From: Chiloscyllium plagiosum
Lineage: Eukaryota
DNA length: 33,599 nt
Reading direction: 5' to 3'
Assembly (NCBI RefSeq): GCF_004010195.1
Contig: NC_057751.1
Span: 14,950,172-14,983,770 of the forward strand
Shown one piece after another: positions 15,315 through 32,752 of the stretch (positions are counted from its first letter, which is position 1; each line of letters begins with the position of its first letter). A model generated the notes under the pieces. It did no database searches and was not told where the DNA came from. It saw nothing but the letters and a program-made list of their open reading frames with translations. Position numbers and translations under genes: made by a program.

Positions 15315-16182
15315 TAGAAACATGAATATCATCATTCAAAATGATTGTGACCGATTATCCAACTCAGTACTCAGTTCCTGCTTTTGCTACATATCTCTTT
15401 GATCCCTTTACCCCCAAGAATTATATTTATCTCCATCTTAAAAACATGTAATGTTTTAGCCTCAACCTATTTCTGTGGCAGATCATTCTACAAGTTCATC
15501 AATGTCTGGGTGAAGACCATCGCAGTCCTAAATGACCTAACTGGTGACCTTAAACAATAAACCCTGGTTCCAAACTCTCTGGTTATTGGGATCGTCCTTC
15601 CTGCATTTACTCTGTCTAGTCCTGTTGGAATTTTACAAGTTTCTATGAGATGCCCCTTCCCCAGGCTTCTGAACTCCAGTGAATATCTGATCCAGTCTGT
15701 CTTCAGATGGCAGTCGTGCCATCCCTAGAATCAGTCTGGTAAACTATTGTTGCACTTCTACCTTAGATAGAACATCCTTCTTCAGATAAGGAGACCAAAA
15801 CTGCACATAACACTCCAGGGTGTGCTCTCACCAAGGCCTTGTACAATTGCAGCAAAACATCCTTGCTCCTGTTTTCAAATTCTTTCGTGATGAAAGCCAT
15901 CGTACCATTTGCTTCCTCCACCATCTGCTTCAAATGCAATCTTACTTTAAGCAATTGGTGTACAAGAACACCCAAGTCTCCTCCTTGCACCTTCCCCTTT
16001 CCCAATCTATTGCCCCTCAAATAATAAACTGCCTTCCTGTTTTTGTTATTAAAGAGGATAATCTTATTCTTATCTACATTAAAAGCCATCTGCCATGCGT
16101 TTGCCCACTCCCTCAACTTGTACAAATCAGACTGAAGTTCCTCTGCATCTTTCTCACAGTTTGCCTCCCCACTGAGCTTTGT
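15315..16182 (-). mobile_element. CR1 LINE 3' fragment
   Basis: ORF 15763-16125 contains WANAWQMAFNVDK and LLQLYKALVRAH. Confidence 0.88.
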
Positions 16183-16684
16183 ATGGAAAGATCATAAACT
16201 TTAACCTTGTTTCTCCCTCCACAGATGCTGTCATATCTGCCGAGAAATTTCTGTTTTTAATACATAAGATAACATTCTGTTTTAGCAAGGTCAGAATCAT
16301 AGGATTTGTGATTGTTGACTTAATATTTGGAGCATATTTGGATTCTGGACTCTGTGAAGGAAACAGTTGAAAGGCATTTAACTTGGCAGCAACTCAAACC
16401 AAACTGAAGTTTGTGAGAAAGCATGTTTTGGCAACTATACTGCAGCTTTTGAAAGATATACATGGGATGTGAATGTTGCCAGCAAGGCTGGCATCCATTG
16501 CCCATCCTGAATTGCCCTTGAGAAGCTGGTAATTGCACAATTGGAATCATGGACTGCTAAAACCACATATGCTCAGCATTGTCTGTGATGGTTCTTTGTA
16601 AAAGCAGTTCATTTACTCCTGGTTCTATGGTCTTTGCTTTTTTTTTGTCTATTCCAATAATTACTTCATTCTGTTTTGTTAGCG

Positions 16685-17127
16685 TCTATTTGAAACCATT
16701 AGCTTTTGGAGCACTGCTCCTTCATCAAACGTTAGTGAGAGAAGACTTTCGACACAGAATTTATAAGGAAAAGAGCAAAGGGTCATACACCTTATGTGCA
16801 CAAATGTGTGTTCAATTTGTTCGCATGACTTGTATAACCCTTTGATCTTTTGCTTGGAAGAAGCTAGACACAGAACTTATAAGAAAAAAGATCAAAGGAT
16901 CATACAACTCATGAACACTGGTGTGTGTTCAATTTGTTCGCATGACTTGTATAACCCTTTGATCTTTTCCTTATAAGTTCTGTGTGTAAGGTCCTCCTCT
17001 CTCACTAACACTTGAAGAAGGAGCAGCACTCTGAAAGTTAGTTTTCAAATAAACCCGTTGGGCTATAACCTGGTGTTGTGTGATTTTTGACTTTGTCCAG
17101 CCCAGTTCAATACCGACACCTTCACGT
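16685..17127. mobile_element. Palindromic PLE-derived element related to family B, with internal tandem duplication
   Basis: Inverted degenerate hammerhead motifs at 16700-16728 (-) and 17012-17040 (+). It shares the aaataaacc.gttgg.c.ataac.tggtgttgtgtgat end with the 18430-19173 element. Confidence 0.78.
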
Positions 17128-18065: not shown

Positions 18066-18708
18066 ATAAACCAGGAGGTCTCATAAAGAGATTTTCATCC
18101 TAGCACCCAGGTAACGCAATAATGCTTTGGGATGGGCTATGATTCTACCTTCCAATGATACATAAAATGATGTTTGGGTCTTTACGTGACCACAAGATCA
18201 CATGAAATAGGAACGGGGAGCTGTTTTGGTCCTTCAAGCCTGCTCTGCCATTCAATAGGATCATGGCTGATCCAACGTTGCTCACATCCACCTTCCTGCC
18301 TTTTCCCTATAACCCTTGAATCCCTATTGATCAGGAATTGATCCATCTCAGCCTTAATTATAGAGAAGAACTCTGCTCCCACAGCTCTCTGTGGCACGGA
18401 GTTCCAAAGACTCTCAACCTCTCAGAGAATGATGTGGAGGTGCCAATGATTAGACTGGGGTAGACCAAGCCAACAATCACACAACACCAAGTTTTGGTCC
18501 AACAGGTTTATTGAGAAGTATTAGCTTTCTAAGCGCTGTTCCTTCATCAGGTGCTCCCCGTTCCTATTTCATGTGATCTTGTGGTCACGTAAAGACGCAA
18601 ACATCATTTTATGTATCATTGGAAGGTGGAATCATAGCCCATCCCAAAGCATTATTGCGTTACCTGGGTGCTAGGATGAAAATCTCTTTATGAGACCTCC
18701 TGGTTTAT
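18066..18708. repeat. Near-perfect inverted duplication: 156-bp arms at 18066-18221 and 18553-18708, 331-bp spacer
   Basis: Base-by-base reverse-complement comparison shows two mismatches in 156 nt. Confidence 0.95.
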
Positions 18709-19790
18709 CGAAGACACAGAATTTAGAGCAAAAGACCACAGTGTCACGTAACTGAAACGATATATTGAACAAACCTAGATTGCTGTTAAGTCTCCCATCT
18801 TTTAGAATGAGTTGCAGGTTTCAGTTCATTACTATGTTACTCCTAGAACTTATTTCAAGTGATATTCTTGAGATAACTTAAGGTATTATAAAAAAAAGGT
18901 GACATCTCAGCTCAGACAATGCATTAAAGGTATGAGGTTCGAGTCTGTCTGTATCCCAATCTTGAGACTAGTTCTGTTTCCAAATTAGGAATTTATAAAA
19001 GGTTTGTTCAATATATTGTTTCAGTTGCATGACATTGTGGTCCTTTGCTATAAACTCTGTGTCTTATGATCCTGCTCCACAGCTACCCGATGAAGGAGCA
19101 GTGCTCCAAAAGCTAGTACTTCCAAATAAACCTGTTGGACAATAACTTGGTGTTGTGTGATCTTTAACTTTAACTCAGAGAAGAAATTCCTCCTCTTAAA
19201 GGCACCCCTTTGTTCTGACACCATGCCCTCTGGTACTAAACTCACCCATAAGGGGCAACATTCTGTCAGCATTTACTCTGTCAAGCCCCTTAGGAATCCC
19301 ATATGTTTCAATGAGCAGACTCCCAGCCTGTTTAGCCTTTGCTCATAAGACAATCCTTCCATACTGGGGATCCTCCGAGTGAACCTTTTCTGAACTACCT
19401 CCAATGAAATAAGGGGATCACAACTGCTCACAATACTCAAGATGTGCACTCACCTGCATCTTTCCAGATGCAGTAAGACTTCCCTCCACTTATACTCCAA
19501 TCCCTTGTAATAAGAGCCAATACTCCATTAGTCTTCCTGATTACTTGCTGCACCTGTATGCTAGCTTTCCATGTTTGGTGAACAATTCAGCCTGAAGTCC
19601 CTTTTCTGTTGCAACTTTCTGCAGTTTTTCCCTCATGCTCTGTGTTTTCTTTTTCTTTCCAAAATTAATAACTTCACATTTTCTAACATTATACCTATTT
19701 GCCAACCTTTTTTGCCCAATTACTTAACTTATCAATGTCTCTCTGTAAATTATTTGTATTCTTCTCCCAAAGTTGCCTTTCCACCTATTT
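18190..19790 (-). mobile_element. CR1 3' fragment (18190-18429 and 19174-19790) split by the family B element
   Basis: ORF 18182-18397 (LPQRAVGAE..IKAEMDQFL) is CR1 ORF2 C-terminus-like, and the sequence resumes after the TSD. Confidence 0.82.
18430..19173. mobile_element. Palindromic PLE-derived element, family B, inserted in a CR1 3' end
   Basis: 9-bp TSD ctcagagaa (18421-18429 and 19174-19182). Diverged inverted arms at about 18466-18776 and 19000-19171, with a tail of about 36 nt at 18430-18465. Hammerhead-like motifs lie at 18522-18550 (-) and 19084-19118 (+; tac-CCGATGA-a-GGAGC-agt-GCTCC-AAAA-GCTA-gta). Confidence 0.82.
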
Positions 19791-21597: not shown

Positions 21598-21609
21598 GCA
21601 TGAGCAAGG
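21598..21609 (+). other. IKBKB: 5' UTR part of the first coding exon of IKBKB; implies an upstream non-coding exon that was not located
   Basis: The AG at 21596-21597 follows a pyrimidine tract and lies 12 nt upstream of the ATG. Confidence 0.75.
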
Positions 21610-21714
21610 ATGAGTCGACCGCCCTCCTCTCAGAACCTGAGCTGTGGAGCATGGGAGATGAAGGAACGATTGGGGACTGGAGGTTTTGGGAATGTCAACC
21701 GATGGACTAACAAG
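21610..21714 (+). CDS. IKBKB: IKK-beta, first coding exon (aa 1-35, includes the kinase Gly-rich loop)
   Basis: Translates to [35 protein letters not shown], matching the IKK-beta N-terminus as I recall it ([21 protein letters not shown]) better than CHUK/IKK-alpha. Polypyrimidine tract and AG acceptor (ttctcttttgccttcag) end at 21597. The ATG has A at -3. Coding length is 105 nt, followed by a phase-0 GT donor at 21715. Confidence 0.96.
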
Positions 21715-21734
21715 GTAGTGTTTGCTAAGTTTGA

Positions 21735-21928
21735 GAGAAAGTGAGGGCTGCAGATGCTGCAGATCAGAGCTGAAAATGTGTTGCTGGAAAAGCGCAGTAG
21801 GTCAGGCAGCATCCAAGGAACAGGAGAATTGACGTTTCCTGAAGAAGGGCTTATGCCCGAAACGTCGATTCTCCTGTTCCTTGGATGCTGCCTGACCTGC
21901 TGCGCTTTTCCAGCAACACATTTTCAGC
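21735..21928. mobile_element. Palindromic non-autonomous PLE-derived element, family A, copy 1
   Basis: 14-bp TSD tttgctaagtttga (21721-21734 and 21929-21942). Inverted arms 21768-21838 and 21859-21929 are 71 nt with two mismatches, both G-U in RNA. A 33-nt unpaired tail occupies 21735-21767. Confidence 0.88.
21839..21866 (+). ncRNA. Minimal hammerhead ribozyme motif, intact core, sense to IKBKB
   Basis: CTGAAGA-a-GGGC-ttat-GCCC-GAAAC-GTC, with the ACGT palindrome at helix III. Predicted cleavage is after C21866. Stem I is only about 2 bp. Confidence 0.75.
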
Positions 21929-22369
21929 TTTGCTAAGTTTGAATTGCACCAGAGCGCTTGAGTGCAGGCAGGAAAGGTTCTGAATTCTCGTTTTCCTTCC
22001 TCGTTTAGAACATTTCTTTGGAAGTTCGAGTTCTGACTTGTTTTAAACTTTTATGCATTCTGACTGGGCATGAGTAAAGTATTAAATGAATCCAGCAATG
22101 GGGGTAGAATAGAGGCAGAATGGCTATGCACTGAAAAATTCCTCTTGACAGAACATGGTTTTTCTATGGCATAAAAGTCTCACGGTTTGCTCATTATATG
22201 GTTATTTTGCGACTTATTTTATTAAGTTGTTCAGTGACTTGGTCTAATGATCCCATGACCCAAGTTCAAATCTGGACATCTGGGGACCTGAAATTAAATA
22301 ACTGCAATGACAAGCTTGAATCAGTAATAGTGACCATGAAACTAATGGAACGACTGTGGCCACAAAAGG

Positions 22370-25470: not shown

Positions 25471-25956
25471 TCCATGCCCCCACTGACATCCCCTCTCATC
25501 ACAGCTCACTCTCCTTACCAGGTTATACTTGGGGAAATAACTTCACTCTTTGTGAATAATTCTAGGAAATTGGACTTTTAAAAAATATTGTGCATGGAAT
25601 TCAGATTTCAGTGATCAGATCAGAATAACAGTGCAAAATATTATATCAATGCCAGCTCCTTTGTTCATGTTTTCCTTTAATTCCATTCCCCACAGCACTG
25701 TAAATTCTTTGACTTGAAATATTTGCCTCATTTCCCTTTCGAATGTTGCAGTCATATCTGCTTCTATGATGCTTTCTTGCAATTTATTCCAGATGTGCTT
25801 AAATCAAAAAGCCTAATTTTCTTTCCAGTTTTTTTTATAGAGTCATGGAGTCCTACAGCACGTAGACAGGCCCTTTGGCCCAAACTGTTCCATGCCGACC
25901 AAAAGGTCCATCCAAGCCAACCCCATTTCCCTGCACTTGGCCCATCTTCTCATCAG

Positions 25957-26169
25957 GGAGGAGAAAGTGAGGGCTGCAGATGCTGGAGATCAGAGCTGAA
26001 AATGTGTTGCTGGAAAAGTGCAGCAGGTCAGGCAGCATCCAAGGAACAGGAAAATCGACGTTTCGGGCATAAGCCCTTCCTGAAGAAGGGCTTATGCCTG
26101 AAACGTCGATTCTCCTGTTCCTTGGATGCTGTCCGACCTGCTGCGCTTTTCCAGCAACACATTTTCAGC
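25957..26169. mobile_element. Palindromic PLE-derived element, family A, copy 2, inserted in a CR1 3' end
   Basis: TSD (gc)ccatcttctcatcag at 25940-25956 and 26168-26184. Same GAGAAAGTGAGGGCTGCAGATG tail and same ...TTTTCAGC end as copy 1, with longer inverted arms. Confidence 0.88.
26080..26107 (+). ncRNA. Minimal hammerhead ribozyme motif, intact core, sense to IKBKB
   Basis: CTGAAGA-a-GGGC-ttat-GCCT-GAAAC-GTC, with a G-U pair at the base of stem II. Confidence 0.7.
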
Positions 26170-27329
26170 CCATCTTCTCATCAGCCTTTCCTATCCATGC
26201 ATTTCTCCAAATGCCTTTGAAATGTTGTTTATGTCTCAGCCTCCACCACTTCCACTGGCAGCTTATTCCATATGCGTACCACCCTCTGTATAAAAATGTT
26301 GCCTCTCAAGTTCCCTTTTATTCTTTCCCCTCTCGCCTTAAACTAATGACCTGTAGTCCTTGATTCCCCAATCCTGGGAAAAAGACTGAGTGGTTCACTC
26401 TATCATGCCTCTCATAGTCTTAGACGCCTCCATAAGGTCCCACCTCAGTCTCCTTTGCTCTAAAGAAAAAGTCCTAGCTTGTCCAACCTCTCTCTCTGTG
26501 ACTCAGACCCTTGAATCCAGGCAATATCCTTGTAAATTTCTTCTGCACTCTTTTCCAGTTTAATAACATCCTTCATAAGTATGGCCGCACCAACGACCTA
26601 TATAACTTCAACATAACTTCTCAACTTCTATTCTCAGTGCCCTGACTGATGAGGGCCAGTGTGCCAAAAGCCTTCTTCACGGGCCTGTCTACCTGTGACT
26701 CCAATTTCAGAGAACTGTGAACCTGAACTCCAAGATCCCTCTGTTCCACTACACTCCTTAAGGCCCTCCCATCCACCATGAAACTCTTACCTTGATTTGA
26801 CTTTCCAAAATGCAAGACTTCACGCTTATCCATATTAAACTCCATTTGCCATTTCTTGCCCACTTCCCCAGCTGGTCAAGGTCCTGATGCAATTTCCGAT
26901 AACCTTCCTCATTATGCACTATGCTGCCTATTTTAGTGTCATCAGCAAACTGACTAACCATGCTTTGTACATTCTCATCCAAATCATTGATATAGATGAC
27001 AAACAGTAATGAGCCCAGTACCGGCCCCTGAGGCACCCCACTAGTCGCAGGCCTTCAGTCTGACAAACATCCTTCCACTATTACCCTCTGCTTCCTCCCG
27101 GCAAGCCAAATGTGTATCCAATTTTCCAGCTCCCCCTGGAATCTCTGTGATCTAACCTTCCAGAGCAGCCTACCATGTGGAACTTTATCAAAGGCCTTAA
27201 TGAAATCCATATAGTCTGTCTACTGCCCTGCCCTCGTCAACCTTCCTGGTCACTTCATCAAACAACTACAACAAATTTGTGAGGCATGATCTCCCATGTA
27301 CAAATCCATGCTGGCTACTCTTAAGCAAA

Positions 27330-27437
27330 GCTGAAAATGTGTTGCTGGAAAAGCACAGCAGGTCAGGCAGCATCCAAGGAACAGGCGAATCGACGTTTCG
27401 GGCATAAGCCCTTCTTCAGGAATGAGGAAAGTGTGTC
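27330..27437 (-). mobile_element. Monomeric (single-arm) family A PLE-derived element inside a CR1
   Basis: Matches one arm of copies 1 and 2. 12-bp TSD with one mismatch, ctcttaa(g/a)caaa, at 27318-27329 and 27438-27449. Confidence 0.85.
27392..27419 (-). ncRNA. Minimal hammerhead ribozyme motif, intact core, antisense to IKBKB
   Basis: Minus strand reads attc-CTGAAGA-a-GGGC-ttat-GCCC-GAAAC-GTC-gatt. Confidence 0.75.
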
Positions 27438-28369
27438 CTCTTAAACAAACCCTGTCTTTCCAAATCATGTCCATCTTATCTTATCGGAATCTTTTCGAGT
27501 AACTTACCACCACAGGTGTTAGGCTTACTGGTCTATAGTTCCCAGGTTTTTCTTTGCAGCCCTTCTGAAATAAGGGCACAATATTCGCTACCCTCCGGTC
27601 TTCCGGGACCTCGCCTGTGGCTAACGATGCAAAAATATCATCCAGGGCCCCCACTTCTCTCGCTTCTTGCAGTGTTCTTGAGTATATCTCATCAGGACCA
27701 GGTGATTTATCCACTTTCATACATTCTAATACATCCAACACCATCTCAAATGTGATATGGACTGTCCCCAAGATATTGCCACTAATTTCCCCAAGTTCCC
27801 AAGTCTTCATGTCTTTCACCTTGGTAAACACAGAGGAGAAATATTCCTTGAGAACCTCACTCATCACCTACAGTTTGACAAATACATGTCCACTTTGGTC
27901 CTTGAGGGGTCCTATTCTTTCCCTGTTTTTTCTTTACCTTTACTATACTGAAAGAACCTCTTTGGATTCATCCTAATCTTTTCAACCAAGGCTATCTGGT
28001 GTCCCCTTTACACCATCCTGATATCCTCCTTCTGTAAATTCATGTATTCCCTTGATCCCAGCTGCCTGTACCTGATCCACGCCTCCTTTTTCTGGTCAAA
28101 GCCTCAATATCGTTTTTCATCCAGGGTTCCCAATTCCTGCCAACCTTGCCTTTGACCGTCACAGGAACAGACAGGCATTTAACTTTAGCCATCTCTCTTT
28201 TAAATGCCTCCCACTTGCCAGAGATCCCTTTGCCTGCAAACAAACTACTCCAATCAATCCCTGTAAGCTGCTGTCTAATTCCATCAAAATTTGCCAATAA
28301 CTTTAAATTTGGATTCTTTGCTTATCACTGAAAACAGTTTCTATTTATTTATTTGTCAGAATCAATTAT

Positions 28370-30432: not shown

Positions 30433-30553
30433 ATCAGAGTTCTGAGGAAGGATCACTGGACCCGAAGTATTAACTCTGATTTCTCTTCTCAGGTGCTACC
30501 AGATCTGCTGAGCTTTTCCAGCAATTTTGTTTTTGTTTCTGATTTCCAGCATT
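30433..30553 (+). mobile_element. Degenerate hammerhead-bearing PLE-derived fragment, further family
   Basis: atcagagtt-CTGAGGA-a-GGATC-actg-GACCC-GAAg-tatt-aactctgat, with a perfect 9-bp stem I, followed by the family-typical ctgctgagcttttccagca tail. Confidence 0.62.
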
Positions 30554-31106
30554 TTACACATGTTATCATTCTCCCTCTCCAATTTTGGAAGCTTGGCATG
30601 CATTAGTTTGAGCAGTGGAAATCTCTGGCGTCAATGCAGAGAGTCTGTCCCATCTGTGCTTACCATGTTGTGATCAAATCTAAACATGCCGTGTTCCACA
30701 CACAAAGCAGGAAATTAGTTCTTCAAATTGCACAATGTCCAAACCACACTGTCTATAAACCATCACAGCTTGTTTAGATATTCTTTCCCTGAATAAACTG
30801 CCACTTTTGGCCTTCCTGTGTCAAGTTTACTTGACTTGGAGGTTTCTTTTTGCAATCATTTGAAATATTGCTCCTTGAGGACCAGCAGACGACCCTTTGG
30901 AAAACCTATGTATTGTTGATTTCGGTAACTGTTAAACGGCAGCAAGATTGGTATGTGGGTCAGACATTAAGGTATCAACAGCTATCTTGATCCCCTCACT
31001 CTTATCTCTCTTCCAGCTCCTGTTGTCACCCGTGGACGCTCCATTTCCACCTTCAACCACAATTGTCAACACTTCTGCATCAAGGATGCAAATTGGGAAA
31101 GGAGGC

Positions 31107-31338: not shown

Positions 31339-31604
31339 GAGGCACTGTCTTAACCACAAACATTCTGCACTATTGGGAGAAATGCACATGAAATATTCTG
31401 AGTTCAGGGCCTGGCACAGAAGTGTCAACAAATTGGAGTTGAATTCTAGACTAGAACCTCAAAGCCAACGTTGGTCGCCACCTCTTGCCTTAGCAAGGAT
31501 GGGGAGAAATGTTGGTCATGAATTTCAGAGTACAGTCACCTCCACAATACTTGCCCAGATCAGCTGGCTCAGTTTTAGTTCCCCTAACTACAAAAGTCTT
31601 CATT

Positions 31605-32752
31605 TAGAACATAGAACAGTACAACACAGAACAGGCCCTTCAGCCCACGATGTTGTGCTGACCATTGATCCTCATGTAAGGTAAACCTAATGTATGAACC
31701 CTCAAATTTCTGTGACCATATGCATGTCCAGCAGTCTCTTAAATATCCCCAATGACCTCGCGTCCACAACTGCTGCTGGCAACGCATTCCATACTCCCAC
31801 AACTCTCTGCATAAAGAACCCACCTCTGACATCCCGTCTATACTTTCCGCCAAACAGCTTAAAACTATGACCCCTCGTGTTAATAATTTCTGCCCTGGGA
31901 AAAAGTCTCTGCTATCAACTCTATCTATGCCTCTCATTATCTTGTCTACCTCAATTAGGTCCCCTCTCTTCCTTCTTTTTTCCAATGAAAAAAGTCCAAG
32001 CTCAGTCAACCTCTCTTTGTAAGATAAGCCCTCCAGTCCAGGCAGCATCCTGGTAAACCTCCTCTGAACCCTCTCCAAAGCATCCACATCTTGCCTATAA
32101 TAGGGCGACCAGAACTGGACACAGTATTCCAAGTGCGGTCTAACCAAAGTTTTATAGAGCTGCAACAAGATCTCACGACTCTTAAACTCAATCCCCCTGT
32201 TAATGAAAGCCAAAACACCATATGTTTTCTTAACAACCCTGTCCACTTGGGTGGCCATTTTAAGGGATGTATGCACCTGCACACCAAGATTCCGCTGTTC
32301 CTCCACACTGGCAAGAATCCTATCCTTAATCCTGCACTCAACTTTCAAGTTCGACCTTCCAAAATGCATCACTTCGCATTTATCCAGGTTGAACTCCATC
32401 TGCCACCTCTCAGCCCATCTCTGTATCCAATTAATGTCACGCTGCAGCCTACAACAGTCCTCTATACTGTCAATGACACCTCCAACCTTTGTGTCATCTG
32501 CAAACTTGCTGACCCATCCTTCAATCCCCTCATCCAAGTCATTAATAAAAATTACAGAGTAGAGGCCCAAGGACAGAGCCCTGTGGAACACCACTCACCA
32601 AAGACTTCCAGGCAGATAACTTTCCTTCCACAACTGTCTTCTGTCGACCAGCCAGTTCTGTATCCACACAGCGAAATTTCCCTGTGTCCCATTCCTCCTG
32701 ACCTTCTGAACGAACCTACCATGGGGAACCTTATCAAATGACTTGCTGAAGT
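31605..32752 (-). mobile_element. Young 5'-truncated CR1 LINE (RT C-terminus and 3' UTR)
   Basis: ORF 31584-32594 has IFINDLDEG..SKFADDTK, WQMEFNLDKCEVMHFG, LYKTLVRPHLEYCVQFWSP and LERVQRRFTR. Frameshifts occur at both ends, and the 3' tail is ttctatgttcta. Confidence 0.95.

Follow-up and report, generated by a model that had tools for sequence, protein, structure and literature searches.

The insert that lies behind the first coding exon of IKBKB in Chiloscyllium plagiosum is very probably the 5'-truncated, inverted pLTR end of an abundant, endonuclease-bearing Penelope-like retroelement (PLE), a copy that was dead on arrival and that travels as a passenger in a normally spliced intron. It measures 194 bp (positions 21735-21928 of the window, i.e. 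the whole stretch of 33,599 nucleotides that was analysed) and begins at intron position +21, 20 nt past the donor of the first coding exon. From its letters and those of its relatives, five features out of six (the reverse transcriptase being the sixth) would place it among the inverted-pLTR insertions of PLEs that bear an endonuclease: we found a hammerhead within the pLTR, a GIY-YIG frame upstream of it in longer copies, a tail of 30-40 nt at one end only, and an inverted truncated copy enclosed by a TSD. The same combination (hammerhead in the terminal repeat, inverted truncated copy, one-end tail of 30-40 nt, GIY-YIG endonuclease) is described for PLEs in the available portions of four published accounts (PMC3846280, PMC8557442, PMC4209133, PMC11167929).

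Host locus and age of the insert

The first coding exon of IKBKB (21598-21714, plus strand; ATG at 21610, 35 codons) was identified by a phmmer match to IKK-beta and by a presumed-RNA contig. Since the 35-residue frame (21610-21714) is matched far better by IKK-beta (PDB 8omv, E 1.9e-10) than by IKK-alpha (5ebz, E 1.8e-4), we assign it to IKBKB, as the first-pass annotation of this DNA had done; exons of IKBKB_SDD follow on the same strand, some 24-36 kb past the window end. The 5' splice site, also as annotated earlier, reads AAG|GTAGTG (21712-21720, donor 21714/21715, plus strand) and is weak at +4 to +6: against the donor consensus CAG|GTAAGT, five of its nine letters agree.

Exact use of the donor was seen in sample X18, where a 601-nt contig equals 21597-21715 with zero differences and diverges at both ends. 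Depth was 10.2 on this exon-exact contig and zero on the unique intron flanks, and we therefore conclude that this donor serves the exon. No retained-intron contig was found in this one presumed-RNA sample (it bears the same species label, its RNA nature is guessed, it may or may not carry the insert, and its contigs drop rare forms). Throughout the window no 500-bp bin exceeds a CpG observed/expected ratio of 0.55, and no CpG-island promoter for IKBKB was seen in the 21 kb upstream of the coding exon; the absence of a CpG island notwithstanding, the X18 contig bears about 240 nt 5' of the first coding exon.

The site is empty in two related organisms (B and C), for each of which one contig joins 21720 directly to 21929 (X12 record 1, letters 314 to 315; X9 record 16, letters 549 to 548), without the insert and without one TSD copy, which indicates that the insert is young. 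As the relatives' contigs align through 21720, the weak donor is host sequence older than the insert; none of the differences listed for these contigs (41 further ones aside) falls within 21712-21720. Compared with its 19 nearest copies the insert has three private letters, at 21760 (18 of 19 copies differ), 21798 and 21830 (19 of 19 each), and this divergence of about 1.5% would make it young, not brand new.

Anatomy and fold of the insert

Two perfect direct repeats of 14 bp (TSDs, 21721-21734 and 21929-21942, plus strand), of which the empty site has one copy, enclose the insert. Its left arm starts with a 34-nt PLE 'tail' (21735-21768, antisense) that occurs on this arm only and that trails the sense arm in parental copies. 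The remainder of the arm is an antisense copy of the pLTR 3' end (21769-21838, minus strand). At the inversion junction (21836-21838, plus strand), marked by a TTC microhomology, the antisense arm meets the parental sequence directly 5' of the core of a minimal type I hammerhead motif (21839-21868, plus strand), which comprises CUGAAGA, an extra A, a 4-bp helix II, GAAA and a palindromic ACGU. The right arm (21859-21928, plus strand) is the sense pLTR 3' end, and has no tail.

The two arms pair into a stem of 71 bp (21768-21838 with 21859-21929), Watson-Crick throughout bar two G-U pairs (U21798 and U21830), both created by private letters. The 20-nt loop (21839-21858) holds CUGAAGA, the extra A and helix II, while the 3' half of the motif, with the predicted cut after C21866, is locked in the stem: in the folding calculations GAAACGUC (21859-21866) is stem-paired with a probability above 0.99. 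The region folds with a z-score of -19.5, and none of 200 shuffles was equally stable. The first-pass annotation had described precisely such an object (a young insert with a perfect 14-bp TSD starting at +21, folded into a 71-bp stem with two G-U pairs, the loop carrying CUGAAGA and helix II), and both its coordinates and its fold hold, with the empty site in two relatives speaking for its youth. No Rfam family reached its gathering score anywhere in the window; 12 sub-threshold matches, mostly to miRNA hairpin models, were rejected as generic hairpin scores.

An abundant Penelope-like family

The 30-nt hammerhead core has 30,936 exact occurrences in the 3.56-Gb assembly, and 12,282 of the core in its 41-nt parental 5' context. 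The hairpin junction of the IKBKB copy occurs 113 times, and a sister junction with the same sense breakpoint (the 209-bp form, 15 nt longer) 737 times. These exact-match counts are lower bounds, and the control queries, read backwards, gave 0 matches. The meaning specific to this locus that had earlier been attached to the hairpin is hard to maintain with the same and the sister junction so widespread. Parental copies continue from the core into the right-arm sequence and, optionally, on into a 34-nt extension, the reverse complement of 21735-21768.

Evidence for the endonuclease stands at the level of the family and comes from longer copies, the IKBKB stub of 194 bp having no ORF. A frame upstream of the core in locus L050 scored 24 bits for GIY-YIG (PF01541; Pfam cut-off 22.6), and L035 (84% amino acid identity) and L053 (91%) carry this frame too, sense-upstream of the core. 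By tblastn it matches 10 loci, among them, besides L050, L035, L053 and L037, six in other positions or orientations. Two other frames tried gave nothing in Pfam, and one 55-aa piece was without family match. A PLE reverse transcriptase was not seen in the sequence upstream of the core, which reads N in 11 of the 30 loci. We found no description of this shark-genome PLE family in the literature searched (mostly open papers without supplements, with Repbase and Dfam outside the search).

Set beside the inverted-pLTR insertions of PLEs, as far as these are covered in the available parts of PMC3846280, PMC8557442 and PMC11167929, the shark-genome copies agree in the inverted, 5'-truncated copy, the one-end tail of 30-40 nt (34 here), the TSD, the GIY-YIG frame upstream in longer copies and the hammerhead in the pLTR. 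They differ in their very high copy number, in the IKBKB stub being only 194 bp long and devoid of an ORF, in TSDs of 12-19 bp (vs 8-10 bp in the rotifer examples described there), and in a sense breakpoint that is fixed 3 nt before the core in both counted junction forms.

Two further copies reside in the same intron. One (25957-26168, plus strand) is a second hairpin, of the 209-bp junction form, within a 16-bp TSD (25941-25956 and 26169-26184); the other (27330-27437, minus strand) is a single arm without tail, its hammerhead antisense to IKBKB, with a 12-bp TSD that has one mismatch. The arms of the three copies could cross-pair in the pre-mRNA across 4-6 kb.

The window also contains older palindromic or fragmentary repeats (16684-17054, 18066-18708 and 19000-19171) with degenerate hammerhead-like words and shared ends, which probably represent another PLE family; the second of these includes an inverted pair (18066-18221 and 18553-18708) of 156 bp, 98.7% identical. 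At 30440-30560 a related family is represented by a diverged pLTR-like stub, in which a tail and a decayed hammerhead-like word can be recognised. Stop-free frames on the minus strand (15763-16191, 27481-27867 and 31584-32594) resemble what we take to be fragments of LINE reverse transcriptases.

Formation of the hairpins

The rules by which the arms are combined were read from three sets of copies: 20 of the 113 with the IKBKB-type junction (the first listed on contigs 1-5, minus six already among the best matches to the insert), the first 12 of the 737 with the 209-bp junction, and the first 30 of the 30,936 cores. The tail sits on exactly one arm in all 20 copies of the IKBKB type (13 on the left, antisense arm and 7 on the right, sense arm; three copies have a truncated arm), in all 12 of the 209-bp form (6 antisense, 6 sense), and in 15 of 15 inverted matches among the first 30 cores, which correspond to 12 elements, one of them common to the 209-bp set of 12. 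TSDs of 14-19 bp accompany 15 of the 20 IKBKB-type copies, and TSDs of 12-17 bp 9 of the 12 copies of the 209-bp form. The other half of the first 30 exact cores (15/30) has no detectable inverted arm; in three of these 15, short stretches of antisense sequence are visible on inspection, and inversion is accordingly undercounted.

Within a copy, both arms also carry the same subfamily variants more often than shuffled pairs do. At three diagnostic sites, arm-to-arm agreement among the readable cases of 32 loci was 18/26, 24/24 and 21/24, as compared with shuffled-pair means of 11.2, 17.3 and 14.6, and at most 1 in 10,000 shuffles reached values as high. Hence, the same junction forms repeatedly from different templates, and no single master hairpin lies behind the copies. 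This bears directly on the reading in which the 194-bp hairpin is itself a self-propagating, non-autonomous element (SINE- or MITE-like) descended from one master, to which we give almost no credence. The best 40 genome matches do span nearly the whole 196-nt query at 96% identity or more, with fixed ends, as such an element would, but they were chosen by their likeness to the query; the 20 other copies with the same junction carry the tail on either arm and include several pLTR subfamilies, each on both arms, while the first 30 cores show a variety of junctions and the IKBKB-type junction is found in only 113 of 30,936 cores. A clonal origin from a single master is thus largely refuted; there may be several small master hairpins. 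In one locus (L102) the junction segment is tandemly duplicated (212 bp), which points to template switching having recurred there.

We favour, with some reserve, twin priming as the exact route by which the repeatedly formed hairpins arise. The element's endonuclease would nick both target strands 14 nt apart, and each nick would prime reverse transcription, one from a start site at the tail end and the other from a start site 34 nt upstream; both cDNAs would halt near the hammerhead, anneal through the 3-nt TTC microhomology, and have their gaps filled. Twin priming from two start sites followed by TTC annealing leads to a hairpin with one tail, which is what was observed. In the background literature, the protein of an anole PLE cuts and extends both target strands, and its reverse transcription starts at two sites, one at either end of the tail (PMC11167929). 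The alternative is a self-priming fold-back; for PLE inversions, self-priming on an antisense template is proposed instead in the part of PMC3846280 available. No published report of twin priming in PLEs was found in the literature searched (mostly open, without supplements).

The 5' inversions of L1, attributed to twin priming, likewise consist of an inverted segment with a microhomology junction inside a TSD; the shark-genome copies differ from them in that both arms copy the same element end and are told apart by the tail, hence the hairpin. The antisense arm is explained by the insertion mechanism. The earlier proposal that a self-antisense arm is what makes such inserts tolerable is not supported: half of the first 30 cores have no detectable inverted arm, and for a motif that is monomeric a lock would be superfluous.

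The hammerhead motif

The motif had been called intact, which is true of its core nucleotides and not of its helices. Between 21839 and 21866 we found the conserved core, the extra nucleotide after A9, the G10.1-C11.1 pair and the palindromic 15.2-16.2 of the minimal hammerheads; helix I has 2 bp (vs 4-5 bp in the definition of these motifs) and is short in the parental context too, and helix III is without a loop. Because of this 2-bp helix I and loopless helix III, the hammerhead needs a second motif, with which it would pair ACGU to ACGU. Relative to the metazoan PLE motifs of Cervera and de la Pena 2014, in the sections available (PMC4209133), helix I is 2 bp here, as is reported for D. 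virilis, helix II is 4 bp, and the 3' half is sequestered by the inverted arm.

In the folding calculations, the ribozyme-competent state of the IKBKB insert lies 17.8 kcal/mol above the ensemble (a fraction of about 3e-13), and the ACGU duplex with a partner returns only 1.7-3.1 kcal/mol. In non-hairpin copies the hammerhead fold costs +3.3 to +7.4 kcal/mol (3 of 3 tested), and in the second hairpin copy (25957-26168), which holds the window's only sense partner, 39.8 kcal/mol. A cis dimer with that copy (motif at 26080) was rejected, both motifs being locked (17.8 and 39.8 kcal/mol), as was a type III monomer fold through the left arm, in which, as read from the sequence, there is no room for a helix I hairpin. 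Once the right arm is transcribed the arms would zip into the stable hairpin, and the hammerhead could not assemble; the kinetics should favour the hairpin as well, because the locking arm is transcribed first.

Published activities are in keeping with a silent motif. Single minimal hammerheads of PLEs gave no cleavage, and dimers little, in the part of PMC4209133 available; the same dimer requirement is stated in the accessible text of a review (PMC6765202). The anole PLE hammerhead cleaves only with the element's protein added, and anole RNA-seq contained no reads ending at the hammerhead cut site (PMC11167929). The notion of two mutually exclusive folds acting as a working switch in IKBKB is therefore not supported, in view of the folding cost, the small return from a partner and the inactivity of single motifs. 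On these models the hammerhead is predicted to be locked shut, and a regulatory switch is unlikely. In a rarer variant, with 42 exact copies, the junction runs from the antisense arm straight into the core, and there the arms would give a very long helix I rather than lock GAAAC; these copies, not the one in IKBKB, would by their sequence be the best candidates for dimer cleavage.

Two other kinds of hammerhead-bearing sequences were weighed. Amniote intronic hammerheads such as that of RECK, as presented in the portion of PMC6155905 available, are likewise of type I, sense and located in a host-gene intron; they have been conserved from class to class and are considered domesticated, whereas the IKBKB motif is absent from two close relatives. 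We rejected a domesticated hammerhead given the empty site in B and C, the loopless helix III, the cost of +17.8 kcal/mol, and the lack of an Rfam hammerhead match. Non-LTR retrozymes, in the accessible text of a preprint (bioRxiv 10.64898/2026.07.22.740005), are also non-coding, PLE-related and endowed with a type I hammerhead, and about 43% of their copies in Xenopus are intronic; they form head-to-tail tandem units with at least two motifs, and were rejected here, the IKBKB insert being a single inverted stub.

Possible consequences for the IKBKB transcript

If the insert is a passenger, the intron would be spliced about normally in spite of it, and the +21 position would be a chance event tolerated by selection. 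Its closeness to a donor is unremarkable, since random insertion would be expected to place 65-109 core-bearing copies within 50 nt of a donor (assuming 150,000-250,000 donors).

A quite unlikely variant retains the passenger origin and has the tail (21750-21760) pair with the weak donor (21715-21725), with the hairpin behind it, so that U1 is slowed and splicing of the first coding exon lowered or delayed. Such a helix, the one lead peculiar to this locus, is indeed predicted (11 bp, four G-U; -12.5 kcal/mol as a duplex, -15.1 kcal/mol as a local fold), and in it G+1 pairs with C21760, a letter private to the IKBKB copy (G in 18 of the 19 nearest copies). The mean unpaired probability of donor positions +1 to +6 is 0.06 (vs a control median of 0.415), and when control GT sites were given the same insert 17 of 300 were as paired and 283 less; for most of the windows folded, the insert raises the predicted pairing of the donor, of whose nine letters five fit the consensus. 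However, its unpaired probability varies with the window, from 0.01 to 0.5 with the insert and from 0.11 to 0.66 in the empty-site model, which is itself partly paired, and about 6% of random sites are equally paired. Moreover, the single presumed-RNA sample uses the donor exactly and has no retained-intron contig, and U1 could bind before the tail is transcribed. We hold it to be improbable, from folding models, that the PLE stub would tune the NF-kB kinase in this lineage only, its tail pairing with the donor and the 71-bp hairpin holding that state so as to lower or delay splicing. Were it true, a PLE 'tail' would directly exemplify antisense modulation of a splice site, with insert-plus and insert-minus alleles or species as a ready natural experiment.

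Very improbable is a co-opted dsRNA or ribozyme switch by which, under regulation, the nascent IKBKB transcript would be cut or ADAR, Drosha or Dicer supplied. In its favour, the core nucleotides are intact and in sense orientation, the same intron has another sense motif 4.2 kb downstream, and a stem of 71 bp offers sufficient length to ADAR or Dicer. The anole PLE hammerhead, too, does cleave when the element's protein is present (PMC11167929). The unlocking costs of both sense copies (17.8 and 39.8 kcal/mol) and the 2-bp helix I stand against it, together with the inactivity of single minimal motifs and the little activity of dimers (in the available part of PMC4209133), the anole RNA-seq without ends at the cut site (PMC11167929), the absence of the insert from two relatives, and hundreds of identical hairpins elsewhere in the genome. 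Passive ADAR editing of the stem is plausible, as a generic and not a locus-specific effect.

The raw single-cell run X21, of which about 2 in 100 reads were sampled, yielded 1,684 family reads, none on the exon or the unique flanks. As 99% of them continue into unlike sequence, they stem from other copies of the family. No read-end pile-up was found among these 1,684 reads (a weak test, the reads being from other copies), and the change spectrum by places (A>G 7, T>C 13, C>T 7, G>A 6) likewise describes other copies and is uninformative on editing at the IKBKB locus.

Implications

As it stands, the IKBKB insert matters little, Penelope stubs numbering in the tens of thousands; it provides a clean presence/absence marker 20 nt from the weak donor of an immune kinase. 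For the biology of the family, the restriction of the tail to one arm, like the TTC at the junction, accords with twin priming from the two start sites demonstrated in vitro for the anole element, and would speak to a step that the authors of that study left open.
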